A stretch of 41,472 bases of DNA from an uncultured archaeon (lineage in GTDB: Archaea; Thermoplasmatota; Penumbrarchaeia; JASLWR01): the NCBI GenBank assembly GCA_964342815.1, contig CAYFHS010000035.1, positions 5,077 to 46,548 on the forward strand, given 5' to 3'. The position numbers were made by a program, and so were the translations under genes. Numbering within the stretch: position 1 is the stretch's first letter; every line of letters starts with the position of its first letter. The notes beneath the pieces were generated by a model, which saw only the letters and a list, made by a program, of their open reading frames with translations, made no database searches and had not been told where the DNA came from. This document shows, piece by piece, positions 2 through 31,100 of the stretch.

Positions 2-1440
2 AATGTCGGCGATGGAATGCACCGTATCGATGTTTCGTATTTCAATGAGACCGGTGTTGAGTTCTGGTCGTGGACCGAAGTTCTCGTTGACGTCGGGCAC
101 GTGATCTACGCAGACGTATTCGTCGGACCCAACGGGAGCGACGGAATTCCCAATGATGTCAGCATCTGGCTTTATGACAATGACTGGATGAGCGTCCCCT
201 ACGCCGATGTCTATTTGAACGGTGATTGGGTTGGATTCACCGATGCTCATGGTAAACTCGACATCAATGATCTGGACTCCGGTATGTATGTTTTGGACGT
301 GTTTTATTACGACGCCATGTACGGTGAAGAGTACCGTGGCACCACCGAATTTATGATCGACCTCGAATATTTCATCTATGTCGAAGCTTTCGTCTATTCC
401 CAGGGAGGTCAACGGCCTGATGATGTGAAGGTCCACGTTTATGACAACGCGGGTAATCCGATTGGAGGGGCCAATGTATGGCTGGAATGGATGGAATGGG
501 GTATGACCGCAGAGAACGGTTCCACCACATTCTATAATGTCGGCGATGGAATGCACCGTATCGATGTTTCGTATTTCAATGAGACCGGTTTTGAGTTCTG
601 GTCCTGGACCGAAGTTCTCGTTGACGTCGGGCACGTTATCTACGCTGACGTATTCGTCGGACCCAACGGGAGCGACGGAATTCCCAATGATGTCAGCATT
701 TGGCTTTATGACAATGACTGGATGAGCGTCCCCTACGCCGATGTCTATTTGAACGGAGATTGGGTTGGATTCACAGATGCGGAGGGTAATATTCACGTAA
801 ATGATCTGGACTCAGGCATGTATGTTTTGGACGTGTTTTATTACGACGCTATTTACGGTGAAGAGTACCGGGGTACCACCGAATTTATGATCGACCTAGA
901 ATATTTCATCTATGTGGAGGCTTTCGTCTATTCCCAGGGAGGTCAACGGCCTGATGATGTGAAGGTCCACGTTTATGACAACGCCGGCAATCCCATTGCC
1001 GGAGCTAACGTTTGGCTGGGATGGTTGGAGTGGGGTTTGACCGCAGAGAACGGTTCCACCACTTTCTATAATATCGCTGATGGATTGCACCGTATCGATG
1101 TTTCATATTTCAATGAGACGGGTTTCGAGTTCTGGTCTTGGACAGAAGTTCTTATCGATCTCGGTCACGTGATCTACGCTGACGTTTTCGTTGGTCCCAA
1201 CGGCTCAGATGGAATACCGGACGATGTCAGCATCTGGCTTTATGACAACGACTGGATGAGCGTTGCCTATGCAGATGTCTATTTGAATGGAGATTGGGTT
1301 GGATTCACAGATGGTGAGGGTAATCTGGACATCAATGACCTGGATCCCGGTTTGTATTTGTTGGATGTATTTTACTACGACGCCATGTTTGGAGAGGAGT
1401 ACCACGGGACAACTGAATTCCAGATAAACCTCGATTTCTA
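2..1440 (+). repeat. 534-bp (178-aa, two-module) intragenic tandem repeat, about 2.7 copies visible and continuing off the left edge
   Basis: (A/T)TGCACCGTATCGATGTTTC recurs at 17, 551 and 1085, an exact 534-bp period. Copies 1 and 2 are near-identical at DNA level; copy 3 diverges after ~1440. Confidence 0.95.
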
Positions 1441-4420
1441 CATATATGCAGAGGCCTTTGTGTATCCTATGGACGCCGATCTGGTAGCCAACGACGTAAT
1501 TGTATATTTGTATGATAATGCCGGCAATCCAATCGAGGGGGCCAGTGTTTTTATCAACTGGGCGTGGATGGGTTCCACCTCTGAGAATGGTTCAGTGCTA
1601 GTCAAGGACCTGGAGGATGACTGGTACAGTGTCGATATACATTACTGGAATGATACCTACGTGGACCATTGGGCCTGGACGGAGTTTATCATCGAGATGG
1701 AACATATAATCTACGCAGATGTTTTCGTATTTCCCGGGGACCCAAACGGTATACCAAATGATGTGGAAGTGTATGTCTATGATGGTAACGGCTCACCCCT
1801 GGAATCGGCAGAGGTTTATATAAATAATGAATGGGCCGGGCTGACCGATAAAAATGGTTCAATTGCTTATAAAGATCTGGAAAACGCCTCCTATATAGTT
1901 GATATTTTTTACTATGATATGTTGAATATGAAGGAATATTGGACGAAAACCGAATTTATAATAAGTGCCGGAGAAAAGTTCATTTTCACCGATGTCTATG
2001 TTTATCCGGCGGATGGGGACGGAATATTGAATGACCTGGAGATTCACGTTTACGATTTCGAGGGTAATCCCCAGGTGGGAGCGGAAATATATATCGATTC
2101 CATGTGGTACGGCATGACTGGTGAAAATGGATCACTCTGGTCCTTAAATTTCTCACAGGGTTGGCATTACGTGGATATTTTCATATATGGCGAAGTTGCG
2201 GGAAATGATAGTAATTTTTCGGTGGATTTCCAAGCCTGGGCGGAATTCTATATCGGTGACGAGGGATATCTTTGGCTGGATGCTTTTGTTCTTGATCACA
2301 ACAATGATAGTTACATGAACGATGTGAAGATCAGGGCCTATACCGGTGATAATGATGTTCTTCCATACGCGGATGTATATGTCGATGAGTATTGGGAAGG
2401 CATGACGGACCTGGATGGCGAACTTGTTGTGGAAAACATATCGAGAGGATGGCATGAGGCCTGCGTCATTTCGGATAACCGGTTCGGCTTCATCTGGTTC
2501 TATTCCGAAGGGGCTGATGAACAGTATATCTATATCGAGCATTTCGTAAAGGATATCATCCCGGAAAATATTACGGACGATGCTATCATTTACGTCTACG
2601 ACCAGGATGATAATCCCGTAGCTTTCGCAGAGGTTTACGTAGATGGTTATCTGGTGGGTTTTACTTCCACTCAGGGGTATATAACCAGCTTTGATCTGGT
2701 CGCGGGCTACCATTTCGTCGATGTGTATTTTTATAAGGCGGATTGGAATTATTCGGCCTATGCGTGGACTGAGATATGGGTCGGCGAGGATTATCATTAT
2801 GGTGATGCCTACGGAAACGACGATGACGGGGATAATTATACCGATGACGGGGAGATCTGGGTCTATGACGATGAAGGTAATCCAATAGATCCCGACGACT
2901 ACAATGCAACTGTGGACGGAGAACCGGTGGAGGGAAACGAGTCCACAAGGAACGACGTAATGAGCCTGAAATTGTCCGATCTGCCGGCAGGTCTTCACTT
3001 TGTGACCATATACTTGGGTACAGGGACCCGCTCTGATGAGCCCCTAACATTCGAGTTCATATCCGAGGGTACTGGTGAGGCGTTCATATATACCAAGGCA
3101 CTCACTGTGGACGCTGATGAAGACGGAGCGAAGGATGATTCGCGTATCTATGTATATGATGAAAACCACGAACCGGTGGCTGGTGCGGACGTATATGTGG
3201 ATGGGTTGTCGAAGGGTCAAACAAATTCTAACGGCTATATCGATATCATTGGCATAAGTTCGTCGGACTTTTCCACGGGAACCCATTCCGGTTATGCTTC
3301 GTATGATCAACTGGAGTGCGGGATAGAGGGCCCCAAAGTGGATGTAGTGGTTGAACCCCCAAAACCGGACGTCCGCATAGTGCCGTCAATGACCATCGGT
3401 AAGTTCACGATAGATGTTAAACACGCAATCAGCGGGGATCTAACATTAGGTACGGCTACCAGTCCGGGATTTCTCCCCAGCGGTCTGCAATCTATGGGGC
3501 TCTACTTCAATATCGAGAGCACCATGGTCTTGAAAAATGGAGAATGGATCTACATTGCAATAAGCTATAACGGAGGCGAACTTCCGGAAGGGGTGGATGA
3601 GGGCAGTCTCGCTCTTTATTACTGGGATGTGACCGCCAGCAATTGGTTCAAATGTGCCAATCCCGGTATTGACGTGGGAAATGACATACTTTGGGCAAAC
3701 GTTTCCCATCTCACTGTCTTCACGGTTTTCGCGAAAGAGATCGAACCAGCAGAGACTGTGGATGACGATGAATCATCATCCTCATATCTTTTATACATCG
3801 TGATAGTCGTACTGGTGGTTATTGGCATATTGTTCGTTGTCAGGAGTTTAGGGAAAGGAAAGGAGGGAGGACCGGAATCACCTCAGCCGGAATACGAACT
3901 GGAGGATGAAGAAGATTCTGACGAGGACGGATTATTCAGAGATTGGGTGGATTTCGAGGAGGGAGGTTGGGATTACGATGAGGATGCCGTGGAGGTCAAG
4001 GAAGAATCCATTGGTGCAGATGATGAGTACGGTTGCCCTGATTGCGGTGAAACCCTTGAAGCCGATGATGACGTTTGCCCGGGCTGCGGCTCCGTATTCG
4101 ATGACGACGATGAATTCTCCGAGGATGATGACATTGATGACATTGGAGACGATGCCGTGGATGACAATGATATTGATGACATTGAAAAAATATCTGAGGA
4201 GGACGGTGAAAAGGGTGAAGAAGATGAATTCCCGATTGCGGACGATGTCGGTGAAACAGAAAATGAAGACGATTGGGATGAAGATGTGGAAGATAAATTC
4301 TCGGTTGATGCAGATGATGGAGAAGAGGATGTGCAAGAGGATTGGGTTGATAGTGATTATGATGAAGATGATGAACAATCCTCGCAAGGCGGGAATAAGG
4401 AAGAAGAATTCGTTGGATAA
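2..4420 (+). CDS. Large cell-surface/S-layer-like protein, 5'-truncated by the window edge. Tandem ~89-aa PEGA/carboxypeptidase-regulatory-like beta-sandwich modules, a membrane-proximal domain ending in HLTxF, one TM helix, and a very acidic cytoplasmic tail with a double Zn-ribbon.
   Basis: Frame is open from base 2 (N-V-G-D-G-M-H, matching the preceding residues of the next repeat copy), so the true start is upstream. Repeated motif 'A(D/N)V(Y/W)xxxxWxGxTxxxG'. Many N-x-S/T sequons (NET, NGS). TM YLLYIVIVVLVVIGILFVV. Tail contains CPDCG...CPGCG amid D/E-rich sequence. Confidence 0.85.
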   Translation, partial: NVGDGMHRIDVSYFNETGVEFWSWTEVLVDVGHVIYADVFVGPNGSDGIPNDVSIWLYDNDWMSVPYADVYLNGDWVGFTDAHGKLDINDLDSGMYVLDVFYYDAMYGEEYRGTTEFMIDLEYFIYVEAFVYSQGGQRPDDVKVHVYDNAGNPIGGANVWLEWMEWGMTAENGSTTFYNVGDGMHRIDVSYFNETGFEFWSWTEVLVDVGHVIYADVFVGPNGSDGIPNDVSIWLYDNDWMSVPYADVYLNGDWVGFTDAEGNIHVNDLDSGMYVLDVFYYDAIYGEEYRGTTEFMIDLEYFIYVEAFVYSQGGQRPDDVKVHVYDNAGNPIAGANVWLGWLEWGLTAENGSTTFYNIADGLHRIDVSYFNETGFEFWSWTEVLIDLGHVIYADVFVGPNGSDGIPDDVSIWLYDNDWMSVAYADVYLNGDWVGFTDGEGNLDINDLDPGLYLLDVFYYDAMFGEEYHGTTEFQINLDFYIYAEAFVYPMDADLVANDVIVYLYDNAGNPIEGASVFINWAWMGSTSENGSVLVKDLEDDWYSVDIHYWNDTYVDHWAWTEFIIEMEHIIYADVFVFPGDPNGIPNDVEVYVYDGNGSPLESAEVYINNEWAGLTDKNGSIAYKDLENASYIVDIFYYDMLNMKEYWTKTEFIISAGEKFIFTDVYVYPADGDGILNDLEIHVYDFEGNPQVGAEIYIDSMWYGMTGENGSLWSLNFSQGWHYVDIFIYGEVAGNDSNFSVDFQAWAEFYIGDEGYLWLDAFVLDHNNDSYMNDVKIRAYTGDNDVLPYADVYVDEYWEGMTDLDGELVVENISRGWHEACVISDNRFGFIWFYSEGADEQYIYIEHFVKDIIPENITDDAIIYVYDQDDNPVAFAEVYVDGYLVGFTSTQGYITSFDLVAGYHFVDVYFYKADWNYSAYAWTEIWVGEDYHYGDAYGNDDDGDNYTDDGEIWVYDDEGNPIDPDDYNATVDGEPVEGNESTRNDVMSLKLSDLPAGLHFVTIYLGTGTRSDEPLTFEFISEGTGEAFIYTKALTVDADEDGAKDDSRIYVYDENHEPVAGADVYVDGLSKGQTNSNGYIDIIGISSSDFSTGTHSGYASYDQLECGIEGPKVDVVVEPPKPDVRIVPSMTIGKFTIDVKHAISGDLTLGTATSPGFLPSGLQSMGLYFNIESTMVLKNGEWIYIAISYNGGELPEGVDEGSLALYYWDVTASNWFKCANPGIDVGNDILWANVSHLTVFTVFAKEIEPAETVDDDESSSSYLLYIVIVVLVVIGILFVVRSLGKGKEGGPESPQPEYELEDEEDSDEDGLFRDWVDFEEGGWDYDEDAVEVKEESIGADDEYGCPDCGETLEADDDVCPGCGSVFDDDDEFSEDDDIDDIGDDAVDDNDIDDIEKISEEDGEKGEEDEFPIADDVGETENEDDWDEDVEDKFSVDADDGEEDVQEDWVDSDYDEDDEQSSQGGNKEEEFVG

Positions 4421-8425: not shown

Positions 8426-8438
8426 GTAAATTATAAAT
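8426..8438 (+). promoter_or_regulatory. Putative BRE/TATA promoter of the ATP synthase operon
   Basis: GTAAA-TTATAAAT about 75 nt upstream of the atpH ATG. Confidence 0.5.
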
Positions 8439-8512
8439 ATAGAAATACATTTTGGCATGGGACCACGCGCGGGCTCCGTGATGGAAATATTAAGGATTAT
8501 AGGTGGGATGAC

Positions 8513-8839
8513 ATGCTCGAAAACGATATCGTCAAAATAAAGAAAGCAGAGGCTACTGCGGCGTCATTGATAGTCGAGAAGGAGAGGGGAGCGGAAGCCC
8601 ACCTGGCAAAGACAAGGAAACTCCTTGAGAAACAAATGACGGATGATATCGAGAAGAACCGCCAGGTTTTTCTCGGGACGGACAGCAAGCTAAGAGCCAA
8701 TATCGATGCCAGGTCATCCAACATCATCAAAGAAGGGAAAAAAGAAGTGGTGTTACTCAGAAAAAAGGTGGAAAAGAACGTCCAGCAAACCGGCAAAGCA
8801 ATTTTCGAAACTGTACTTGAAACGCTGGAAAACGAATAA
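8513..8839 (+). CDS. atpH: A/V-type ATP synthase subunit H (peripheral stalk, G-like), 108 aa
   Basis: In-frame ATG at 8513 after an SD-like AGGTGG (the ORF track's 8258 start is too long). 'IVKIKKAEATAASLIVE' charged helical pattern. Lies directly upstream of atpI. Confidence 0.75.
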   Translation: MLENDIVKIKKAEATAASLIVEKERGAEAHLAKTRKLLEKQMTDDIEKNRQVFLGTDSKLRANIDARSSNIIKEGKKEVVLLRKKVEKNVQQTGKAIFETVLETLENE

Positions 8840-8880
8840 CCCCAACAGACCCCTCCATGATATAACGGATAAGTGGTAAT

Positions 8881-10920
8881 TTGTTATTCCCTCGAAAAAT
8901 GGTCAAGGCGAACATAATTGCACACAGCAGTATCCTAGAGGATACCGTTGATGCGCTCGCTTCTGCAGAAATAATGCAGGTTGACCCTGTGGATGATAAC
9001 CTCAGCGAGGATTTGCGAGGCTATCTCGGGACCTTGACTACACCTTCCAGGCATACCGCTCTTCTGGAGATCGAACTGCGAATGGAGCGGCTCATGGACA
9101 TATTTTCTACCCATTTTCCCAGCCAAACAAGTATGTTGGCCGATCTTTTTCCCAGCACTGCCAAGAAGGTAAAGGTCGGTAAACTGAGCTTCGGGGAACT
9201 GAAGGCCCGAAGCGAGAGCTTGATGGGGAATATTGAAAAATCCATTCTTGCAAAGAACGACCGGCTATCGGAGATAAACGACGAGCTGGCCAGGAATAGG
9301 GAAAAAAAGGCACAGATATCTCTTCTCGAACCCCTGGACATTCCTCTCGATTACCTCGACGACGGCAAATATACTTTCACGAGGATCGGGACCGCCGATG
9401 ATATTTCCGAGCTCGACAGGATTCTGATGAACATACCCGAGGCCACCTTCGATCACGTTCCCACAGGTCTTCCTGAGGCACCCAATGTTGTGGTTATCAC
9501 CGGGATGAAGGAGGTCAAGGAGGACGTTTCGAAGGCGCTCCGAGGGAAAATATTCAACGAACTTCAGCTTCCGGAGCTTACGGGAAGACCGAAAGAGATT
9601 CTTTCGGAACTCAATAAAACCATAGAGAAACTCGAAAAGGAGCGTGAAAAGCTTCTTGATGACCTGCTGAAGCTTAAGGACGAGTGGACCCCAAAGATAG
9701 ATGTGGAAATGGAGTTGGTCCGTATAAAGAGAGAAAAGTACGAGACCTATGCACGTTTGGGGAAGACTAAGGACACCGTGGTTATATCGGGGTGGGTGGA
9801 AGTGGAGAAGAAGGACGAATTGAGTAAACATTTGAGACCTTTGAAATATATCGAGATAAGCTATGCGGAGCCGGATACCGAGAAGGATACAGTTCCCTCG
9901 TCGCTTTCTCATTCGCGGTTTATCCGTCCTTTCGAATCATTAGTAAATACGTTCTCACCACCCAAATACAATGACTTGGATCCTACTCCTTTCGTGGCAG
10001 TGTTCTTCGTCCTCTTCTTCGGTATGATGCTTGGGGATGCCGGTTATGGATTGATGATACTTATTCCTAGTATATGGATAGGTAGGAAGGTAAAGGAAGG
10101 ATTTGCAGCTTCATTCGCTTTAATTGGTAAATGTATCGCAGCAGTCACTATAATAATGGGACTCGTCACGGGTTCTTTCTTCGGAGATCTCGTACAACGT
10201 TTAATATATATGGATGTCACCCGCACCCTTTATCCTGAATTTTATATTGGGGTCATAAAATTTCCATATGATCCTCTTGTCGATCCTTTACCGCTCTTCC
10301 TCATCGGATTGGGGCTGGGTGTTATTACAATCTATCTTTCCGTGATACTATCAACTATCACTCATACACTACAAAAGGACTTTAAAACTTTATTATTGAC
10401 CGATACGCCCTTGGTAATAATGATTCCTTCTTTGATAATTTTGGTTCTGCAAATGCTGGAAATAGCGACTATTCCCTCAATTATTCAAACTATCTGTCTC
10501 GGGGGGATTGCGTTATCATTTATCCTTTTTTTATGCAGAGATTACAAAATGCCACTCCTTGCAGTTTTCGAATTCACCGGTTTTATCGGGGATCTCCTTT
10601 CATTTGCACGGATTCTCGCTCTGGGTCTGGCAACGGTCGGGCTGGCAATGACTTGGAATATTGTCGGGGAAATGTTTCATCCCGCTGGAAGTACAGTGAT
10701 ATGGTGGATATTAAAGATGTTAATTTTGTTAGTGATATTGGTGTTCTTTCATTTGTTCAACTTTGCATTTCAGACGCTTGGCGCGGGTATCCACGCGCTT
10801 AGATTACAATATATTGAGCTTTTCAATAGGTGTTATGTAGGTGGAGGTGTTCTATTTAGTCCTCTTACGGAGCACAGAGTACATACTGAGGCTTTCGGCA
10901 GAAAGTATACGAAGGAATAA
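8881..10920 (+). CDS. atpI: A/V-type ATP synthase subunit I (a)
   Basis: Soluble N-terminal half; PPKYNDLDPTPF...FFGMMLGDAGYG; essential Arg in GDLLSFARILALGLA; IHALRLQYIE...GGG. TTG start. Confidence 0.96.
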   Translation: MLFPRKMVKANIIAHSSILEDTVDALASAEIMQVDPVDDNLSEDLRGYLGTLTTPSRHTALLEIELRMERLMDIFSTHFPSQTSMLADLFPSTAKKVKVGKLSFGELKARSESLMGNIEKSILAKNDRLSEINDELARNREKKAQISLLEPLDIPLDYLDDGKYTFTRIGTADDISELDRILMNIPEATFDHVPTGLPEAPNVVVITGMKEVKEDVSKALRGKIFNELQLPELTGRPKEILSELNKTIEKLEKEREKLLDDLLKLKDEWTPKIDVEMELVRIKREKYETYARLGKTKDTVVISGWVEVEKKDELSKHLRPLKYIEISYAEPDTEKDTVPSSLSHSRFIRPFESLVNTFSPPKYNDLDPTPFVAVFFVLFFGMMLGDAGYGLMILIPSIWIGRKVKEGFAASFALIGKCIAAVTIIMGLVTGSFFGDLVQRLIYMDVTRTLYPEFYIGVIKFPYDPLVDPLPLFLIGLGLGVITIYLSVILSTITHTLQKDFKTLLLTDTPLVIMIPSLIILVLQMLEIATIPSIIQTICLGGIALSFILFLCRDYKMPLLAVFEFTGFIGDLLSFARILALGLATVGLAMTWNIVGEMFHPAGSTVIWWILKMLILLVILVFFHLFNFAFQTLGAGIHALRLQYIELFNRCYVGGGVLFSPLTEHRVHTEAFGRKYTKE

Positions 10921-10959
10921 TCACAGTCAAAAAAATATAAAAAAAATCGAGGTGACAGA

Positions 10960-11724
10960 ATGAAAACAAAAAAGAGTCTAATATTGATAAGTGTCTTTGT
11001 CTTGGGTTTGATCCTTTGCGCAAGTTCGACCTTTGCGCAGGATGTCAAAGTCGATGAAGATGGCGACGATTTGGATGATTCATGGGAATTGAATATCATT
11101 CAGAAAAACGGATTGGGTCATAACAATGTTTCAATGTTTTTGAACTATTCCGACCCTGATAACGATGGGTTTACAAACCTGCAAGAGTACAATAATGGAA
11201 CGGATCCCTATAATAAAGAAGACACTCCTGGAGAAGAGAAAGACAGGGAGAAAGGGACTGCACTTTTCCTGCTTGGTGTCGCCATTTGTATTGGGGTCCC
11301 TGGGATAATGGCTGCATTTGGTTTATACATCGCAGGTGTCTCCGCGGTGGGCATGACGACGGAACATACTGACCGATTTAGTAAAGGTTTGATCCTTCAG
11401 GCGCTTCCGATGACTCAAGGTGTGTATGGTTTAGTTTTTGCTATATTACTTCTACTCGGTGTCGGGTACATCGGTAGTGGTGACCCTGCCCTTCTCTCCG
11501 ATCCTACTGTAGGTTGGGGTGCGATTATGATCGGAATAACAATTGCCCTTACCAGCGTGTCTGCCATACCGCAGGGTCTAGTGGCGGGAGCCGGAGCTAG
11601 TGGTGTGGGAAGGAATCCAGATATATTCACAAAAGGTCTCATTTATGCTGTTATGCCGGAAACCATGGCAGTGTTTGGTTTTCTCATATCGCTCTTCATT
11701 ATTCGTGGTATCGGCTTAATGTAG
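10960..11724 (+). CDS. atpK: A/V-type ATP synthase subunit K (c, double hairpin, Na+-type site) with N-terminal signal peptide and exported TSP3-like acidic domain
   Basis: aa ~100-254 form four TM helices with ALPMTQGVYG, SAIPQG and AVMPETMAVFG. aa 1-26 are a signal peptide (MKTKK, hydrophobic core, STFA|Q). aa 27-95 contain DEDGDDLDDSWE...DPDNDGFTNLQEYNNGTDPYNKEDT. Confidence 0.93.
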   Translation: MKTKKSLILISVFVLGLILCASSTFAQDVKVDEDGDDLDDSWELNIIQKNGLGHNNVSMFLNYSDPDNDGFTNLQEYNNGTDPYNKEDTPGEEKDREKGTALFLLGVAICIGVPGIMAAFGLYIAGVSAVGMTTEHTDRFSKGLILQALPMTQGVYGLVFAILLLLGVGYIGSGDPALLSDPTVGWGAIMIGITIALTSVSAIPQGLVAGAGASGVGRNPDIFTKGLIYAVMPETMAVFGFLISLFIIRGIGLM

Positions 11725-11743
11725 GACTGATGGAGGACCGTAT

Positions 11744-12316
11744 ATGGGCCTGAAAGATATCCTTAACAAGATCGAAAGTCAGCAGGATCAACGGATCAAG
11801 GAGATCAAGCGGAACAACGCGCGTGAGATCGCCGAGATAAGATCGGAGATGAAGGGGAAAGTTAGTAAGGAAAAGGAAAGGGTTCAAAGCGAGCTGGCCA
11901 AGGAGCGTGAAATATACAGCAACCTTAAGATATCGGAGGGGAAACGAAGCGTTAAGCGGGAGATGCTGGCCGAAAAGGAGCGCTTGATTAACCTGGCTCT
12001 CGGGAATGTGCTCGATAGGTTCGGTGAATTCAAGGGGGAGCGTTACCGCAGTTTACTCAAGAAATTGGTAACGGAGAGTGCCAAGCTGCTCAAGGGTAAA
12101 TGCAGGATACTTGCCACCCGGGAGGAAGACATCCCCTACCTTAAGAACCTGGGAATCGCACCTGTGAGAAATAAAACCATACCGGGAAGGGGAGGAGTAA
12201 TTGTGGTGTCGGAAAACGGCGAGTTCCGTATTGACCGGACCTTCGATTACATGATGGAAAAGCAGAGCGACGATCTTAGGAAGATGACCGCGGGAATTCT
12301 GTTCAAGGAGGAATGA
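11744..12316 (+). CDS. atpE: A/V-type ATP synthase subunit E
   Basis: MGLKDILNKI start, long charged helix, GGVIVVSENGEFRIDRTFD; operon position. Confidence 0.92.
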   Translation: MGLKDILNKIESQQDQRIKEIKRNNAREIAEIRSEMKGKVSKEKERVQSELAKEREIYSNLKISEGKRSVKREMLAEKERLINLALGNVLDRFGEFKGERYRSLLKKLVTESAKLLKGKCRILATREEDIPYLKNLGIAPVRNKTIPGRGGVIVVSENGEFRIDRTFDYMMEKQSDDLRKMTAGILFKEE

Positions 12317-12319
12317 TAG

Positions 12320-13441
12320 TTGGACCCGAGTACCTGGCTGTGGATTGGTTTGATCAGTTTGCTCTTCGGAGCAGTCTTGATCTATTTGGGGATGAAGGTT
12401 CCCATGGTATGGACCATAGCGAGGTTCGGATATTCCAACGCCTTGTACAATTCACGGGTAAACCGGTTCGTAAGACGCATGTATGTGAACAATCTCATGG
12501 GAACGAATTCCTTTGCGGAAGCGGTGAATTTCATTTCGTCCGCCAGTTCCAGGGACTTCCCGTTGAAAACCGTGACCAATGCAGAGGATGCAGAAGCAGT
12601 ACTTTTATCCGCCATGTTGGAGAACGTCCAGAAGGCCAAGGAAGAGTCACCCGATATGATCGGCCCTGTTCTGGACAGCTTTATCATACGATACGAGAAC
12701 CGTACCCTGAAAAGCCTTTTCAGTATCCGGTTCCACGAATCCGCTTCTGACACCGGGATATTTCCAGTAGGGGCTGTTACTGCGAAGCTCATCGAGGAGA
12801 TGAAGAAAGCTGAGACCCTGGATGAAATGATTGATCTTATTCCCCGGTCCGAACTTCGTGACCTGCTTTCCGGGGTTGAGCTCGATACCTTCCAAAAGGT
12901 GGAAAACCTGCTCGATGGGTTCTACATTCAGAGTGTAGAGCACTCCTCCTCCAAGTTACCCCGGACGCTGAAGAAGGAGATGGGGGCGTTCCTTGAGGTT
13001 TACAGCGATATGCTGACAATAAAGACAATACTGAGGATGATAAAGGCTGGAGTACCGGCTGCCCAGAGGAAGGAATTTTCCTTTGCACGGGGGAAACACA
13101 TCACAAGGGATGCACTGGAGGCCCTGCAGGAAGCGGAGAACGTAGCCGAGGCTGTGGATGCGCTGGGCAGCACTCCCTACGCTCCTCTTCTGCGCGAGGT
13201 TTTCAAGGACTTCAAGGACACTGGTCGAATTTCCCTTTTTGAGCTTGAACTTGACCGATTCTGGATCCGATACATTGAGATATTTGCCATGAAGATGAAC
13301 ACCACGGTAGGGCCGGTTATCCGATACCTTACGGAACTGGAATTCGAGACCAGGAACGTAATCGCAGTCCTTCGGGGCTTCGAGGTGCCCGGCGGAAAGG
13401 AAATTGCCGAGGAGCTGTTGATAGTCAGGGGGTCCGCCTGA
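12320..13441 (+). CDS. atpC: A/V-type ATP synthase subunit C (d-like), with N-terminal hydrophobic segment
   Basis: FGYSNA, YENRTLKSLF, LGSTPYAPLL, ELELDRFW, YLTELEFETRNVIAVLRG; operon position. Confidence 0.88.
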   Translation: MDPSTWLWIGLISLLFGAVLIYLGMKVPMVWTIARFGYSNALYNSRVNRFVRRMYVNNLMGTNSFAEAVNFISSASSRDFPLKTVTNAEDAEAVLLSAMLENVQKAKEESPDMIGPVLDSFIIRYENRTLKSLFSIRFHESASDTGIFPVGAVTAKLIEEMKKAETLDEMIDLIPRSELRDLLSGVELDTFQKVENLLDGFYIQSVEHSSSKLPRTLKKEMGAFLEVYSDMLTIKTILRMIKAGVPAAQRKEFSFARGKHITRDALEALQEAENVAEAVDALGSTPYAPLLREVFKDFKDTGRISLFELELDRFWIRYIEIFAMKMNTTVGPVIRYLTELEFETRNVIAVLRGFEVPGGKEIAEELLIVRGSA

Positions 13442-13773
13442 TGAACATAGCGGTAATGGGCGACAAACACACTGTACAGACCTTCTCCCTTGCAGGAGTG
13501 AAGCAGTACCACATAGTGGAGAACTTCGATTCTACCGAAAAGATAGAAGAGGGTTTTGACGGGTTCGTGGCCAATGAGAATATTTCTATTATCTTTTTGA
13601 CCGAAAGGACAGTAAGGGCCATAGACACAAAGCTCAAGTATCATGCGGAACTAAAACAACTCTATCCTCTGATAATCGCCATACCCGACGTTTCCGGCGA
13701 AAGTGAAGGGGAGGACCGGGTCAAGTCACTTATAAGACGGGCCGTGGGTGTGGACATCAAAGAGGAAGTGTAA
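13441..13773 (+). CDS. atpF: A/V-type ATP synthase subunit F
   Basis: MNIAVMGDKHTVQTFSLAGV ... ISIIFLTE ... PLIIAIPD ... LIRRAVGVDI. Confidence 0.95.
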   Translation: MNIAVMGDKHTVQTFSLAGVKQYHIVENFDSTEKIEEGFDGFVANENISIIFLTERTVRAIDTKLKYHAELKQLYPLIIAIPDVSGESEGEDRVKSLIRRAVGVDIKEEV

Positions 13774-13779
13774 GGCGCT

Positions 13780-13804
13780 GGGCGAAAGGGATTGCGCCCT
13801 TTTT
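13780..13804 (+). terminator. Terminator-like hairpin closing the atp operon after atpF
   Basis: GGGCG (13780-84) / CGCCC (13795-99) followed by T5, 7 nt after the atpF stop. Confidence 0.55.
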
Positions 13805-13861: not shown

Positions 13862-13884
13862 TCTATAGTCCCCTATATTTGACT

Positions 13885-14103
13885 ATGGTAACTACTATAC
13901 AGGTAAGTGGAGAACTGCAACAAGAGCTCTTAGCTAGAAAGTTATTTGACAGAGAGACTTACGAGGAAGTAATTTGGGATCTAATTGAGGATAGTATGGA
14001 ATTAAATGATACAACTAAAAAGGAATTACAAAGAGCAAGAGAGGAGATTCGTTCAGGTAAATCCTATACTCTATCTGAAGTGAAGAAAGAGCTGGGTATA
14101 TGA
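13885..14103 (+). CDS. Antitoxin (RHH-like N-terminus), 72 aa
   Basis: MVTTIQVSGELQQELL...ETYEEVIWDLIE; C-terminal 'ARE...GKSYTLSEVKKELG' typical of RelB-type partners; ATGA overlap with the toxin. Confidence 0.8.
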   Translation: MVTTIQVSGELQQELLARKLFDRETYEEVIWDLIEDSMELNDTTKKELQRAREEIRSGKSYTLSEVKKELGI

Positions 14104-14351
14104 GTTACGAAATTATTTTCTCGGCTTCTGCTTTTAAAAAATTAAAAAAGTTGGAAAGAAAAGATAGAGAAAGGATTATTTCAGCACTTGAACGTATCAG
14201 GATCAGACCGGAGAAATATGTTACAAAACTTGTTGGCGATCCGGGTTATCGTTTAAGAGTTGGTCAATATAGAGTAATAATGGACATCGATAAGGGAAAA
14301 TTGATGATTCTAATAATAAAAATTGGCCATCGAAAGAATATATATAAATGA
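14100..14351 (+). CDS. relE: RelE/StbE-family mRNA interferase toxin
   Basis: MSYEIIFSASAFKKLKKL...KLVGDPGYRLRVGQYRVI...IGHRKNIYK; 83 aa, basic. Confidence 0.92.
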   Translation: MSYEIIFSASAFKKLKKLERKDRERIISALERIRIRPEKYVTKLVGDPGYRLRVGQYRVIMDIDKGKLMILIIKIGHRKNIYK

Positions 14352-14362
14352 ATCAATCCCCC

Positions 14363-14689
14363 TCATTTCCCAGGCAGTTCTTCCAGCACCTGCCTCATTT
14401 TATCACGATAGCTATCAAACTCTTTCCGTCCCTTGGCGGTCACTGAAAGCATGGTATGGGGCTTCTTTCCCTTGAATTTCTTTTTTATACGTACATATCC
14501 GGCGTTCTCCAGTTTCGCAAGGTGCGAGGATAAATTACCGAAGGTCAGCCCCGTCTGGTTACGGAGAAACAGGAAATCCGCGCTTTCCACAACGTATAGG
14601 TAGGCCATTATACTGTATCTCGCAGGCTCATGAATGAGCTTGTCTATGGCTTTGTGGGACGAGGCGGGTTTCTGACTGGCCGGTGACAT
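14363..14689 (-). CDS. Winged-helix (MarR/ArsR-like) transcriptional regulator, 108 aa
   Basis: ATG at 14689 after SD GGAGG (the ORF track's longer start runs antisense-frame through the neighbouring gene). IDKLIHEPARYSIM...GLTFGNLSSHLAKLENAGYV...KPHT...TAKGRKEF. Confidence 0.88.
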   Translation of the reverse strand: MSPASQKPASSHKAIDKLIHEPARYSIMAYLYVVESADFLFLRNQTGLTFGNLSSHLAKLENAGYVRIKKKFKGKKPHTMLSVTAKGRKEFDSYRDKMRQVLEELPGK

Positions 14690-14690
14690 A

Positions 14691-15268
14691 TCAAACCTCC
14701 TTGTCGGGCTTTGGATATTTTTTGATAAAACGCGCGAACTGCCAAATTCCCAGTAACAGAAGAAGTGATCCGGCGGCAAGGCCGAAGTAAGCGGCAGTGG
14801 GATCTCCATACTGCTGGAATATAATTTCTTGAGCGCCGAAAACGATTCCGATCCCGAGGAAGATCCAGTAATCGAGATAATATGCAACTGCTGCGAAAAC
14901 GACAACGAGTAAAGCAACTATAATGATCTTTGTAAGGTCGGCGAAGAATATTCCACCGGCTGATAAAACAAACAAAGTTATCATCCCAATCAGCACACCA
15001 ACAAAAACCAGGCTAGCCCACAGCTGTCTTTTCACCCGTTTTTTTCCGTACTTTACTTGTCCCAATCTTGGCATGGTCACAAATTTCTTACCCAATATAA
15101 ATATGACAAGTCCAACGATGATGAGCGCAGTAAAATATACCTGGTCGGTGAGTGTCCTGATGGCACCTATGACCAGTATCATTCCGAATATGAATTCCCA
15201 CGATCCGTCACGGAACTGGAGCTGCCATACTTTTTTTCGAATTTTTCGAGATTTGCCGGTGTGTTCAT
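14691..15268 (-). pseudogene. Multi-pass membrane protein gene interrupted by a one-base frameshift in an A7 run (pseudogene, programmed -1 shift, or sequencing error)
   Basis: ATG at 15268 after an SD-like GAAGTGA and a TATA box at ~15308-15315. Reads MNTPANLEKFEK; one extra A at 15231-15237 continues as KVWQLQFRDGSWEFIFGMILV into ORF 14691..15182. Confidence 0.65.
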
Positions 15269-15709: not shown

Positions 15710-16375
15710 TCATAACCCATAGTCACCCGTCAACGGCACAAAGGCACACCCGCCCAGATGGCACACCTTCACATCATCTCCCTTCTTTTTATACCGCGTC
15801 AGTTCCGAAAAATATTTTGCGCCCACCGGCATCAGCAGAATTCCACCGTCGTTCAGGCATTTTACAAGTATTTCAGAAATATCCGGAGCTGCGGCCGCAA
15901 GGTATATCCTGTCGAACTTTTTTCGGTCCATTGCCAATTTCACGCCGTCCCCCGCAACTACTTCAACTCTGCCATCAAGGCCAGCTTTTTTAATATTCTC
16001 CTTTGCCCGTTCCGCAAGTTCCACCACGATCTCCGCTGAGGTCACCAATCCCTTTTCACCCACCATTTCCCCTACTACCGCAGCGTGATACCCGCCTCCG
16101 CCCCCGATCTCGAGAATATTCAGCCCGGCTTCAAGCTTCAATTCCTCGCACATTATTGCAACCATGTGCGGTGCGCTTATGGTCTGGCCGTGACCGATGC
16201 GCTGGGGTGAATCCTCATAAGCTTTTTCAGGGTCGGCCCGGGGTATGAATATTTCCCGGTCAACCTTGCGCATGGCTTCTTCCACGGCTTTTGACCTGAT
16301 ATAACCGCCGCTTTTCAGCTGTTTTATTAAAATTTCCCTCATCTCATGGTAGCTTCGAGGTCGAAAAAAACTCAT
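15710..16375 (-). CDS. pcm: Protein-L-isoaspartate O-methyltransferase
   Basis: AYEDSPQRIGHGQTISAPHMVAIM, ILEIGGGGGYHAA, GDG, FDRIYLAAAAP, GGILLMPVG, CAFVPLTG. Confidence 0.95.
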   Translation of the reverse strand: MSFFRPRSYHEMREILIKQLKSGGYIRSKAVEEAMRKVDREIFIPRADPEKAYEDSPQRIGHGQTISAPHMVAIMCEELKLEAGLNILEIGGGGGYHAAVVGEMVGEKGLVTSAEIVVELAERAKENIKKAGLDGRVEVVAGDGVKLAMDRKKFDRIYLAAAAPDISEILVKCLNDGGILLMPVGAKYFSELTRYKKKGDDVKVCHLGGCAFVPLTGDYGL

Positions 16376-25166: not shown

Positions 25167-28100
25167 ATGGTGAATGAATCGGTTAAAAAAACGGCGGAAA
25201 AGGCGAATTCCGAGGAAGATACTTCCGAGATAGATCAGCAGAAAGATGATCACAACGGGAAGGAAATCTCCGAAGAGAATCGCATCTCTGCGGAAGGAGA
25301 GGAAGAGGATAAAGGATCCAAGATCGATGAAACCCTTTCTGAAGAAAGCGATCTCTCGTCTCAGGTGGAGCATGAGCGCATGTATGATGAACAATCTCCT
25401 GATGCTCTCACCCTCATTGGCGATCTGAAAGAGGGTGGACGTTACAAAGGCATCATCACCGCTATAAAGGACCTTCGTTCGTCTATGGATGAAAAGATAC
25501 AGGTCCGTCTCCGAAAGATAAGCGAACAACGTTTGGAAGAAGCCGAACAGTCTCTAAACGATTTAGAGGAGGAGAGCGGAAGGGACTTCGACGAACTGAG
25601 AGATTTTCTTGAACATGCCAATACAGCAATGTCTCAGGGCGATTATGATTCTGTTGATACCTTTTTGGATTCGTACATCAGGACCAAGGAAAGCCATGAG
25701 GACCGTGTTCTTTTGGAAAAATACCGGCAGGAAATGAAAAAACTCCGTTCTGACTTATCCATTCTTGAAGAAGCCGGAATTGAACCGCCCGGTAGTGAAA
25801 GGAATATTTCCTCCATTGAAAGAGGTATGGCAGCCCGGCAGTTTGACATGGTAAAAGAAATGATGAAGGAAACAGCTCAGCGGATCAATGATGCAAAGAC
25901 CACTACCGCCAAGAACGTCGCACGAATCGAATTCGCCAGTGTGAAGAGCTCCTTTGACAGACTGAAAAAGACCGGTTTAGAGCTCACAGAAGAAAAAAAG
26001 ATATTCCGAGATGCAATGATCGCTATCAAGAAACAGCAATACCTTGAAGGATGTATACTTCTACGTCGCACAAGCCATTTGCTGGAAAAAGCAGATACGG
26101 GGCGATTGAGGGGGGTTTTATCATCCCGTCTTGAGGAGCACCGAAAATTCTTTTTAATGATCGAGAGCCAGCAGTATTTCTCTGCAGATTACCGTAATAG
26201 CATAAAGGAAGCATTGAATGACCTCGAGGGAATGATCGATGAAGGACAGATAAGCAAAGCGGAATCGGAAATGAAGATGTTTCACAAAATTATGCAGGAT
26301 CTGAAGGACAAAATGGATAAATTCGACCGCACGAAGGTATTGTCGGATGAAGTGACGACACTAATGGAAAAGTCTGAGGAAATGGAAATAGATGTCAAGA
26401 AAGAAATGGAGATGGCCGAGGAGAGTAAGAAACATTTGGAATCGGATAACACGGAGGACGCACATATCCTTCTTATCCAGACGAAGAACTCTCTCCTAAA
26501 TCGGATGGAACAACACCTCAGAGGAGAAGCCGAGAAGCAGTTGAAGGAAGGAAAGAGCGCCATATATGATAATCGAGAGGTAATTGAAGATACTTCCAAG
26601 ATCAATCTTCACCTATTGAATGCAAATACATATTTTGCTCAAAGGAAATATGAACACACAATAAAAACAGTATCCAAGATAATACAGCTGATCGGCGAAA
26701 TGAAAGAGCGAAAAACCACATCAGCAACGAAAAGCCTATTTTCGGAAGCGGAAACGGCCATAAACGAAAACAAAGAAAGAGGAATCAAGGTTTTCGAATC
26801 TGAAGCACTTTATTACAAAGCCAAGTTCTTTTTTGAAAAGAACGACCTTGATCAAGCCACCACTTACGCCAGAAGTTCTCTGAATTGCACTATACGGGAA
26901 CGGACCGAAGTAGAGAAGAAGAAAGCCCGCCTCCCTCTTACCCAGGCTCAGCAATTCATGAAGGAAGCGGTTGCTATCGGTGCGGATGTGAAGGCTTCCA
27001 GTGGGATTATAATAAGTGCTCAGAAATATTTTGACAATGGAAAATTCTCCAAGGCCGCGGAGTGGGCGAATCTTGCCAAAAACGAGATCGAGGAATCCAT
27101 AAACAAGCGATTGTTATCTATCATAAAAGACAAAAAACACGAAGTTGAGTCGTTATTCGCTGAAGCTGGAGAAATTAATCTGGATATCGATGTGGAAAGT
27201 CGGCATTTCAGTACTATTGATGAGCTTCAGACTGGAAAAAAATACCGTGAAGCCATTGATGTTCTCAAAATGATACAGAGTTCTATGAAAAAGATGATCA
27301 AGGAAGGAATAAGGAGGATAAATGCCGAAAAGATCGATAATGCTCAGGAATCCCTTTCTGTGCTGCAAGAGACGTGGGGACTGAATTTTGAGGAGCTGGG
27401 AGAAACCTTGGAAATGGCAAGTTCTGCGCTTCAGGAGGGCCGATACGAAATCCTAGATGCCCATATCGAGGAATTCTCAAGGACGCGGGAACGACATCAC
27501 AATGTTCGTTTATCTGAATCCTATGCGAGCAAAGTCGCGGATGTAGCACCTGACCTTGAAACCCTTAAGGGTCTTGGGATCGATATTTCGGGGGCGGATG
27601 AGTTGGTGGCATCCGTCAGCCATAGTATAACCAATTTTAATTTCGAGGATACGGAAAGATATTTGGCCAAATTATCGGAATTTATCGATGATGCCAGAAC
27701 GGTGAAGGCCAAAAAACGAGCCGGAGAGTACTTCAAAAAGACGAAAGGGATATTCCTTGAAATGAAGGACGAGGGTATTCCCATGGATGAGGCAAAGGAA
27801 CTTATCAAGGGAGCCCTTGGATATATCAATTCAAAGGATTATATAAAGGCAATCGAGGGGACACTGGTCGCCGAAAATGCTTTGTATGAGGCCAGAGACC
27901 GGTACTACAAAGCAGCCACGATAGTTCTTCTCGGTGAGATAAAGGAAATGGAGGGCGAGGGGGGAAAGTTAGGACTTGACCTTTCGGGCATCACTGGAAT
28001 GACCGGAGAGATTCAGACAAGTATTGAACAAGGGAACTTTTTGGAAGCTAGGGACTTGGCTGTACTCTGTAGTGATGAGCTTAAGAAAACCATAGAGAGC

Positions 28101-31100
28101 AAATTATTGGACATGCTGGAAAACAGCATGTCCCGATTAATGCCAGCCCTGGAAGAGGCAAGCGAAATTGGAGCTGATGTAAATGAAGAAAACGAAGTGC
28201 TCCCACAGCTCATAGAGATGAAAGAGAAGAAACAATACAGGGCGGCCATGGAAAGGATTGATTCACTGGCAAGATCGGTTGATAAGAAAAGAAATGCCCG
28301 ATTAAGACAGCTAAATTCCCAAAAGGTCTATGTCGCTGTGAACACAATGCTTACTCTTCAGGAGGAGACCGGGTGGGAATTGGACGAATTACAGATTCAT
28401 CTCGATAAAGCCCAGGAATCTCTGGAAAGGAACAATTATGAGGGAGTGGATGCTCATCTAAACGAATATTTTCAGTTGAAATCCGAAGCTAAGAACCGTT
28501 TTTTAAATGAAAAATACAGCAAGGAGCTACACGAGATAACTAGCAATATTCCCACACTACGGAAAGTGGGTATCGAAATTGACGATACGGATGAATTGAT
28601 CAATATCATTGAAGAAGACCTATCAAACAATAATTTCGACATGGTTGCAAAGAAAATGGATGACCTGTCGGCGTTGATGGATGAAGCAAGATCTATACGG
28701 GCAAGAAAACTGGCAAATAGGAGTTTCAATGATGCCAAAGGATTGTTCGTTCGGCTCAGGGATACCGATCTAGATATAAAAAAGGAGAAAGAGGATTTCA
28801 AAAAAGCAGTTGAAATGACGAAATCCAGGGATTTCGTAGGTGCTTGTGAGTTGATTTTAGATCTTATCGAACGGTTGGAGAAAGCCAATGAGGGTTATGT
28901 CCTCACAAAACTATACCAACAGCTTGAGGAAGCTGAAGTTTTCCATAAGAAATTACATGCACATGAGTACTTCCCCATAGAGACGAAGCGAGATTTCAAG
29001 AATTCTCTCAATGGGGTAATAACTATACTGGGAGAGAAAAATCTGTCTCTTGCAGGGGCCGAAATGAAAGATCTCGTTGATCGTATCATGCATTTGGAAT
29101 CAATTATGAGCAATTTCAACGAAACTTCAGGTCTTTTAACTGAACTGGGAGACCTGGTGGCGACGGGAAAGAAAATGGCCCTCGATACAGAGGTGGAAGA
29201 GCGGTCCCTCACGGAAGCCATGGAACTGAAGAGGACCGACAAGTTCATCGAAGCTATTTCCTTATTGAAGGAAGCCAAAGATGGCCTGGAACTTAAGATC
29301 GAAAACCGTAACGCCGAATTGGCAAAAGAATCAATCGAACAGGCTGAAAAGGACCTTGAGGACAGCATAGATATTTTCAAGGATCCCGATGCAATGATGC
29401 AGCGCCTGTCGGATGCAAAAGTTTTGTACGATAGAAAGGAGTATGAACATGCAGCCGAGATTTCGCGGGGGCTTATTCATATTATCGAGGAGGCCCGAGA
29501 ACAGAGAACGATAAAGGAACTTGGCCGTTTTATCAAGGATGCCCGGGATTTAATCGACGAGAATGAAAAACTAGGGATAGAAATATTCCAGTCCGACGCG
29601 CTCTATTATAAAGCAAGGTATCATTTCGAGAGAAAGGAGTACGAACAATCTCGGAAGTATTGTGACGAGGCCAAGGAAAACACAATAGAGAGCAGGACTG
29701 AGTTCCTTAGACGGGGGGCATCCGACGGCCTTAACGAAGCCTTGGACCGTTTGAAGAAATCCGTTGAGCTTAAATTGGATGTAAGCGACCCCGAGGAAAG
29801 GTTAAAAGAAGCAAGGAAACTCCATGAGGACAAGAAATATGAGGAAGCTAGAGCTCTCATAAACAACATTATAGATGAATTGGAAAAACAGCAATTCCAG
29901 CATCAAAAGGAAACACTCTCCGCCCAAATGAAGGATTTCAGGGAGTTCATCAAAAACCTTCAATCTCTTACCTATATTTCGGAGGAGTATGCCAGCAGAG
30001 TGGAACTGACCTATGAGGTGATGGAAGATCTGTTCCGGCAGGATGAACTCAGCAAACTCGAGATTAAGATCAGCCTGTTCCGGGACGATATGTCCAAACT
30101 TGAGAGAATGATGGGGCACCACGATGAGGCCCAACAGTTGATGCAATCTATCCAGCATCAGAGACATCGTGTTAGGGAACTTGATATCGATATCAGAAAG
30201 GAAGACGGTTGGTTGGATGATGCCCAGATGATGATGCAGGAGAAAAGATTCCGGGAAGCCACGCAGTTATTGAAAGGGACAAAAAATTCTCTTGAGAATA
30301 AAATAGAGATATTCCGGATGAAAAACGCTCAGGGCCTGCTGGAAAGGGCAGTTAGAATGGTGGAAGAGAATCAAAATATTATTGAAGAACTAAGTTCAAT
30401 GGAAGAATATTTCTCCACGGCAACCCGATTCATAGAGAAAAAGCAATACCTGGAGGCAACCGATTCACTCACCGAGCTGATACGTCTCATAGAGGAGATC
30501 CGGGAAAGGAAGAGATCGGAAGATATCGGAAACCTGCTTGATGAGATCAGAGAACTAATGATGGAGAACCAGAGCTTGGGTCTGGACATCTCCCCTTACA
30601 AAGACCGTTTGGACCAAGCAAGAGCATCACTGGAGAGAAAGAACTACGGATTGGCCGAGAAATACGGAAGAGAGGTCAGAGAAATCGCAATTGACAGCCA
30701 ACGAGCGTTTTACAAGATAAAATCCGCTTCACAACTCGAGGAGGTTATGGAAGGGATTCAGGAACTTAAAGACTTGGGTATCCAGACTTCAATCATGGAA
30801 GAGGAACTTGAAAATGTTCTGCTACTTCGGGAAAAGGCGGAATTCCACAAAGCAGTGGATCATTCCCTTAGCATCATTGACAGTATTAATGAAACGAGAA
30901 AACACCATTTCCGCGGCCAAGTTTCAGCATCTCTCACTGATCTGGATAAGATGATGGATAGAGGACGGGAGCTGGGTATTGAACTCAGCTCACTGAAAGA
31001 TGAGATGACCAGATGCACCACCTTATCCGAGGAAGAGAATTTCAAGGACGCCGTTGAGCTTTCAGAATCAGTGCGATCGAGATTGAGTGAGCTGATAGAC

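Follow-up and report, generated by a model that had tools for sequence, protein, structure and literature searches.

A probable ordinary split of the A-type ATPase operon into three unlinked loci in a family of marine Thermoplasmatota

In euryarchaea such as Methanosarcina mazei, the A-type (A1AO) ATPase is encoded by a canonical operon, aha/atpHIKECFABD, and the genes for the Na+ V-type ATPase of the bacterium Enterococcus hirae are gathered in a single ntp operon. Among the Crenarchaeota (for example, Thermoproteus tenax), A-ATPase genes are dispersed as single genes and small clusters (PMC3189178), and in a 2026 preprint on the evolution of rotary ATPases the operons of Thermoplasmatota are treated as typical. 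Here, we analyze a 41,472-nucleotide (nt) stretch of archaeal DNA, referred to throughout as the window, which corresponds to positions 5077-46548 of contig C35 in genome G000 and carries six contiguous atp genes in the order H-I-K-E-C-F. G000 is a metagenome-assembled genome (MAG) of a marine member of the Thermoplasmatota (4.35 Mb, 116 contigs, 88.9% complete, 3.2% contamination). We conclude, with a probability of roughly 0.9, that the six genes are one of three units encoding the organism's only A/V-type rotary ATPase, and that the arrangement is an ordinary split operon.

Set against the canonical A1AO operon, G000 retains the nine subunits, the internal orders H-I-K-E-C-F and A-B, and blocks whose genes are tightly spaced or overlap; it differs in being cut after F and again after B, which leaves three unlinked loci, in possessing a four-helix, single-carboxylate K subunit with a predicted exported extension, and in having a C subunit with an extra N-terminal helix. 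As in the scattered systems of Crenarchaeota, the genes for one A1AO enzyme are spread over the genome, but the phylum and the cut points are different, and the cuts in G000 are few and lie between modules. A literature search found no paper on the operon layout of the family to which G000 belongs.

The open reading frame (ORF) listing and family scans (Pfam and NCBIfam) place six tightly spaced, same-strand genes at window positions 8513-13773, which bears out the gene order proposed in an initial annotation of this DNA, with atpH as a putative assignment. The features of this unit are as follows, with protein lengths in amino acids (aa).

8432-8441, + strand: TATA-like element TTATAAATA, read from the sequence ~70 nt upstream of atpH; a promoter role is suggested by the archaeal TATA consensus
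8503-8507, + strand: Shine-Dalgarno-like GGTGG upstream of atpH
8513-8839, + strand: atpH, putative peripheral-stalk H/G-like subunit, 108 aa
8881-10920, + strand: atpI, stator/ion-channel subunit a, 679 aa (PF01496, 1.5e-21; NF004428, 6e-125)
10960-11724, + strand: atpK, rotor proteolipid, 254 aa (two PF00137 hairpins; weak PF18884 TSP3 match)
11744-12316, + strand: atpE, peripheral stalk, 190 aa (PF01991, 1.3e-11)
12320-13441, + strand: atpC, central-stalk/rotor-cap subunit C (= d), 373 aa (PF01992, 5.7e-40)
13441-13773, + strand: atpF, central stalk, 110 aa, final gene of the unit (PF01990, 5e-17)
13780-13804, + strand: GC stem-loop (5-bp stem, 13780-13784/13795-13799) followed by TTTTT (13800-13804), probable transcript end

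The NCBIfam names for I, K, E, C and F concur with the Pfam assignments. The protein encoded by the first gene returned no significant match in Pfam, NCBIfam or the PDB, and its designation as AtpH is putative, drawing on its position ahead of atpI, its size, its charged helical composition, its conservation among relatives (81% identity in G001 and 44% in G003) and a weak, full-length match of the G003 orthologue to PF16999 (V-ATPase_G_2, E 0.06).

Profile searches for the catalytic head and shaft found neither on the 46.5-kb window contig, with no match to PF00006 (A/B) or to PF01813 (D); the absence of a Walker-A catalytic subunit from the remainder of the window, as originally noted, therefore stands. 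Copies were counted across the whole genome by Pfam profile search. Only two proteins of G000 matched PF00006 above threshold, both strongly, and their genes are neighbors on contig C5: atpA (592 aa) and atpB (493 aa) share a 4-nt overlap and have a YbjN-like gene on one side and a gene for a PKD-domain Ser/Thr kinase on the other; A scores 957 bits against TIGR01043, just below the cut-off of 972, and B 817 bits against TIGR01041 (cut-off 845). PF01813 identified a single atpD (224 aa; NF001545 above cut-off) among unrelated genes on contig C30. Conversely, PF01496, PF00137, PF01991, PF01992 and PF01990 each match the window gene only, such that G000 contains one copy each of I, K (two hairpins in one ORF), E, C, F, D, A and B. 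The presence of one A-B pair, one D and one I/K/E/C/F set indicates an ordinary split operon, which is the inference that the initial annotation had itself attached to such an outcome; the sole departure from the arrangement envisaged there is the additional separation of D from A-B.

The same organization extends beyond G000. Our comparison sample comprised 41 genomes (G000 and 40 relatives labelled as Thermoplasmatota MAGs); three of them, G001, G002 and G003, which were assembled independently in other studies, are other species in the family of G000 and are 91-93% complete. In each of these three, C and A lie on different contigs, D lies on a third, and there is one A-B pair, so that the proposed check of synteny in relatives returned the same three-way division into HIKECF, AB and D. 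The contiguous nine-gene atpHIKECFABD operon is thus absent from all four genomes, its genes falling at three loci on three contigs. At two of the loci from family relatives (L013 and L014), at least 7.6 kb of sequence past F contains no A, B or D. FastTree phylogenies of I, A and B across 14 genomes each recover the family of G000 as a clade with the topology (G002,(G003,(G000,G001))), nested within the class clade, and this congruence indicates that base and head have co-diverged as one enzyme.

Examination of gene order in other families of the class and phylum places the break between F and A in a wider context.

Families f3, f5 and f8: I-K-E-C-F-A-B
Families f2 and f7: I-K-E-C-(F)-A, and B on the opposite strand at a distance of ~10 kb
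Family f10 (another class of the same phylum): I-K-E-C-F-A together on a single contig, B-D on a second one
Families f9 and f13 (f13 outside the class, in the same phylum): canonical order, ending ...A-B-D

The order I-K-E...A-B-D is present in G012 and G040. Sister families with contiguous C-F-A already have D, and sometimes B, unlinked, and D resides on a different contig from A in every genome of the class that was searched, except for the second, operon-linked copy in G012. This class relative, which is assembled as a single contig, has two atpD genes (G012:C1:1019494-1020120 and 2777205-2777816); one follows atpB in a canonical operon and is 37% identical to the D of G000, and the other is solitary and 50% identical. 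Separately, the usually tight A-B junction is broken in f7 and f2, and in the family of G000 A and B stay together and are cut from F. Head and shaft genes have come apart repeatedly in this lineage, and the F/A cut adds one more such step.

These observations suggest how the locus may have arisen and what it contributes. In the ancestor of the class, D would already have been unlinked from the operon, and in the ancestor of the G000 family a further rearrangement would have severed the operon between F and A. The window unit encodes I as the ion channel, K for the rotor ring, E and the putative H for the peripheral stalk, and C and F as central-stalk or rotor-cap parts; the A-B pair on C5 encodes the A3B3 head, and the lone gene on C30 the shaft, D. 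TATA-like boxes are found upstream of H, A and D, and Shine-Dalgarno-like motifs also at H and A, consistent with three separately transcribed units, each with its own promoter, whose products would assemble into a single ordinary enzyme.

Several points weigh against this conclusion. G000 is 89% complete, and a second set could sit in the missing 11%, although the relatives, at 91-93%, also show one set. The transcription units, terminator and promoters are predictions read from DNA, and the assembly of base and head into one complex is likewise deduced. Finally, one extra subunit match, the sole such match among the family relatives, was encountered: an orphan, divergent K-like membrane protein of ~255-261 aa, encoded in G003 (contig C30; L036 5705-6487) and G001 (contig C97; L037 5657-6421), with one PF00137 match and two additional N-terminal hydrophobic segments that appear transmembrane-like by eye. 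As a second rotor or part of a second set, this gene was rejected: no ATPase gene lies beside it in G001 or G003, and searching the entire G000 assembly gave no counterpart, the syntenic slot on contig C19 (~31.2-33.8 kb) being occupied by other genes.

Among the alternatives, the one that survives best accepts that the split is ordinary in origin and proposes that it has since been put to use, with base plus stalks, head and shaft expressed separately so as to be made in differing amounts or at different times, in loose analogy to the regulated dissociation of eukaryotic V1 and Vo. We consider this improbable. The promoter-like elements at the three units would fit such a scheme, as would the retention of the split in four species of the family, the class-wide separation of D, and the fact that the cuts fall between assembly modules (base plus stalks, A3B3, and D) and never inside them. 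However, a neutral rearrangement that has simply been retained fits the data equally well, and no regulator is conserved beside A-B or D. Within the genus, A-B and D keep their neighboring genes, and the gene downstream of D is found in G003 as well; otherwise the flanks, including those of A-B, differ between genera. The product of that downstream gene (L005 243-1265 on C30 in G000), a membrane protein of 340 aa, gives a weak exosortase/EpsH-like match (E 0.004), and the gene occupies the same place in G001 and G003.

Inspection of the other side of atpD in G000 revealed four direct copies of ACATTTGTY at an exact 23-bp spacing, together with one inverted copy (L035 6764-6922); the five sites found between atpD and its divergent neighbor compare with an expectation of 0.27. 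As a candidate site for a shared regulator this motif was dropped, being absent upstream of D in G001 and unenriched in the window, including the region upstream of atpH; the lack of conservation of these spaced repeats in G001 also counts against a functional split.

A second alternative, raised in the initial annotation, is that the window encodes an additional membrane sector with its stalk, and that this would share an A3B3D head, or exchange one, with a canonical set elsewhere. Six genes that end without a head could be read in this way, as could the low conservation of C, E and I (~22-35% identity to other families, versus ~58-80% for A and B). Yet I, K, E, C and F each occur only once in G000, and the family relatives, the orphan K-like gene apart, have no second K or C; the stronger divergence of stalk and base is class-wide and extends to genomes with contiguous operons; and the trees of I and A agree, which together make this possibility very unlikely. 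The divergent motif of subunit C, pointed out in the initial annotation, bears on the same question. The divergence itself is real, with YSNALYNS in the family of G000 versus Y(S/P/H/A)NA(R/K) in sister families, but it fails as a sign of a special module: sister families that share the divergence include genomes with contiguous C-F-A, so that it is unrelated to the split, and the fold is normal. A sequence search of the PDB with subunit C gave no match, and identity was settled by fold. An AlphaFold model built from 13 sequences (pLDDT 89, pTM 0.84) has as its best Foldseek match subunit C of the Thermus V-ATPase (1r5z, TM 0.79), followed by eukaryotic subunit d, indicating that the modelled protein adopts a normal C/d fold.

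Still less plausible is a truly headless module, in which base and stalks alone would act, for example, as an ion conduit or as a rotor without A3B3. Nothing points in this direction except that the locus itself lacks head genes: intact, single-copy A, B and D genes lack any other partner, the genome has no F-type c and no second proteolipid, and E, H, C and F serve only to hold or drive a head in what is the genome's only rotary ATPase. Of the two readings offered originally, then, the simple operon split is upheld by the single-copy counts, and the alternative or headless module is refuted by the single base and head sets in G000 and G001-G003, within the limits set by the completeness of the genome (89%) and of the three relatives (91-93%).

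The end of the unit was examined for signals and for synteny with relatives. The stop codon of atpF occupies positions 13771-13773, and both the hairpin and the T5 run that had been described seven bases beyond the gene are present. The hairpin, however, is no more stable than shuffled sequences (z -0.59), is unconserved in relatives and was also missed by a terminator scan. Oligo-T is a termination signal in archaea, and we retain only the T5 run as a plausible signal after atpF, with the end of the transcript probably close by. The genes that follow in the window are listed below.

13879-14103, + strand: small antitoxin-like gene, 74 aa, with a 4-nt overlap with the toxin gene and only a sub-threshold TIGR02574 match
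14100-14351, + strand: ParE toxin (PF05016, 1e-9)
14363-14917, - strand: winged-helix HTH_34 gene (PF13601)
15710-16375, - strand: convergent PCMT (protein-isoaspartate methyltransferase; Pfam), which opens a block of PCMT, CPxCG zinc finger and HEAT genes

The ParE toxin and its small upstream partner, a putative antitoxin, lie where the unrelated toxin-antitoxin module had been reported after the operon; a paralogue of the antitoxin-like gene (43% identity) lies on contig C17 of G000. In G001 and G003, atpF is followed by the convergent PCMT-CPxCG zinc finger-HEAT block, as in the window, and in G001 the resemblance continues through two glycosyltransferase genes past HEAT. The segment at 13879-14917, comprising the ParE pair and the HTH_34 gene, is absent from the corresponding intergenic slot in both relatives and is an insertion specific to G000, located between atpF and the conserved PCMT; it would have entered, as a later event, the intergenic space created at the operon's end. 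In G002, a different convergent gene begins 6 nt past atpF. On the other side of the unit, a DUF2085 gene upstream of atpH is common to G000, G001 and G003, and a TGT gene further upstream is also found in G003.

This shared organization bears directly on assembly quality. A misassembly at ~13800, which had been held open as a trivial explanation, is excluded, because independent assemblies have the same operon end and the same genes beyond it. The composition of the window contig is somewhat atypical, its tetranucleotide correlation to the genome mean (0.938) being the lowest among 44 large contigs; we tentatively attribute this value to giant, purine-skewed genes, and the gene order shared with G001 speaks against a foreign contig or a binning error. 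Two giant ORFs lie on the + strand at 25167-36674 (3835 aa) and 36674-40795 (1373 aa), with strong purine skew and an AT skew of up to 0.33, and a further ORF of 1472 aa (2-4420) is open at the start of the window. An assembly or binning artefact at the operon end, to which the fragmented state of the MAG (116 contigs, 3.2% contamination) and the low tetranucleotide correlation might lend some color, is vanishingly unlikely, since the contig, 46.5 kb long, continues for 27 kb past the break after atpF, the same end and downstream genes recur in independently assembled MAGs, the GC content of the window contig (0.46) matches that of the two other atp-bearing contigs (0.46 and 0.45), and every relative in the family has a single base set and a single head set, located on different contigs.

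The membrane subunits themselves appear competent. Among solved structures, E. hirae NtpI (8wci, E 2e-35) is the closest to subunit I, and R577 aligns with the essential arginine of NtpI and of Thermus subunit I, with R641 and E646 also kept. Subunit K is closest to E. hirae NtpK (2bl2, E 1e-17) and forms a four-helix double hairpin whose carboxylate, E234 in helix 4 (hairpin 2), is invariant in 12 relatives; hairpin 1 has Q153 in its place. The essential Arg in I and Glu in K recognized at the outset are therefore both present. Like NtpK, the protein has a double hairpin with one Glu and keeps every Na+-ligand position: L61, T64, Q65, Q110 and E139 of NtpK correspond to L149, T152, Q153, Q205 and E234 of K, which are invariant or nearly so in the 12 relatives. 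From this correspondence we predict that the ring couples to Na+ and has a single site for every four helices.

Where K parts from NtpK, which has 156 aa and neither signal peptide nor ectodomain, is at its N-terminus (window 10960-11256, residues 1-99). A signal peptide is predicted at residues 1-26, followed by an acidic segment, predicted to be exported, at residues 27-99, which contains 20 acidic and 6 basic residues, two DxDxDG motifs of the TSP3-like type and three N-x-S/T sequons. This extension is conserved in families f1, f2, f5 and f7 and is exchanged for other acidic tails in f3, f4 and f8; in f12, K has a segment that, judged from its motifs alone, resembles a PKD domain. The N-termini of proteolipids face outward, and the K ring would therefore bear a collar on the outside. 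A literature search found no paper on K subunits bearing a signal peptide.

Subunit C also carries an addition. Its N-terminus (window 12320-12430, residues 1-37) forms an extra hydrophobic helix, spanning residues 3-35 in the model with a core at 7-25 (hydropathy 2.25), which precedes the canonical fold and is conserved class-wide. One NCBIfam model of subunit C (390 positions) extends N-terminally as well, and hence the helix is not unique. Speculatively, it might serve as a membrane anchor or as a plug in the lumen of the K ring, in the latter case much like the accessory-protein helices of eukaryotic Vo. A broader proposal, which we regard as tentative and rather doubtful, is that the class possesses an A/V-ATPase subtype with a rotor decorated on both faces, in which an exported, glycosylated, calcium-loop-like acidic K collar would lie outside and the C helix would plug the ring lumen, and in which the unlinking of head, shaft and base may reflect modules that are separately assembled or regulated. 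The decorations are apparent in the sequences; that they persist on the mature rotor, or are linked to the operon splits, is speculation.

Taken together, our findings remove a candidate new rotary module and replace it with a lineage-specific change in gene order of a known kind. The F/A cut provides a clean gene-order marker for this family of marine Thermoplasmatota, superimposed on a class-wide loss of D linkage, and for annotators, the lack of atpA, atpB and atpD beside atpF in these MAGs is no evidence of a missing or unusual head. An enzyme with an NtpK-like single-carboxylate ring, a full Na+ motif, a K collar and a C helix, the latter two being traits of the class as a whole, merits biochemistry.

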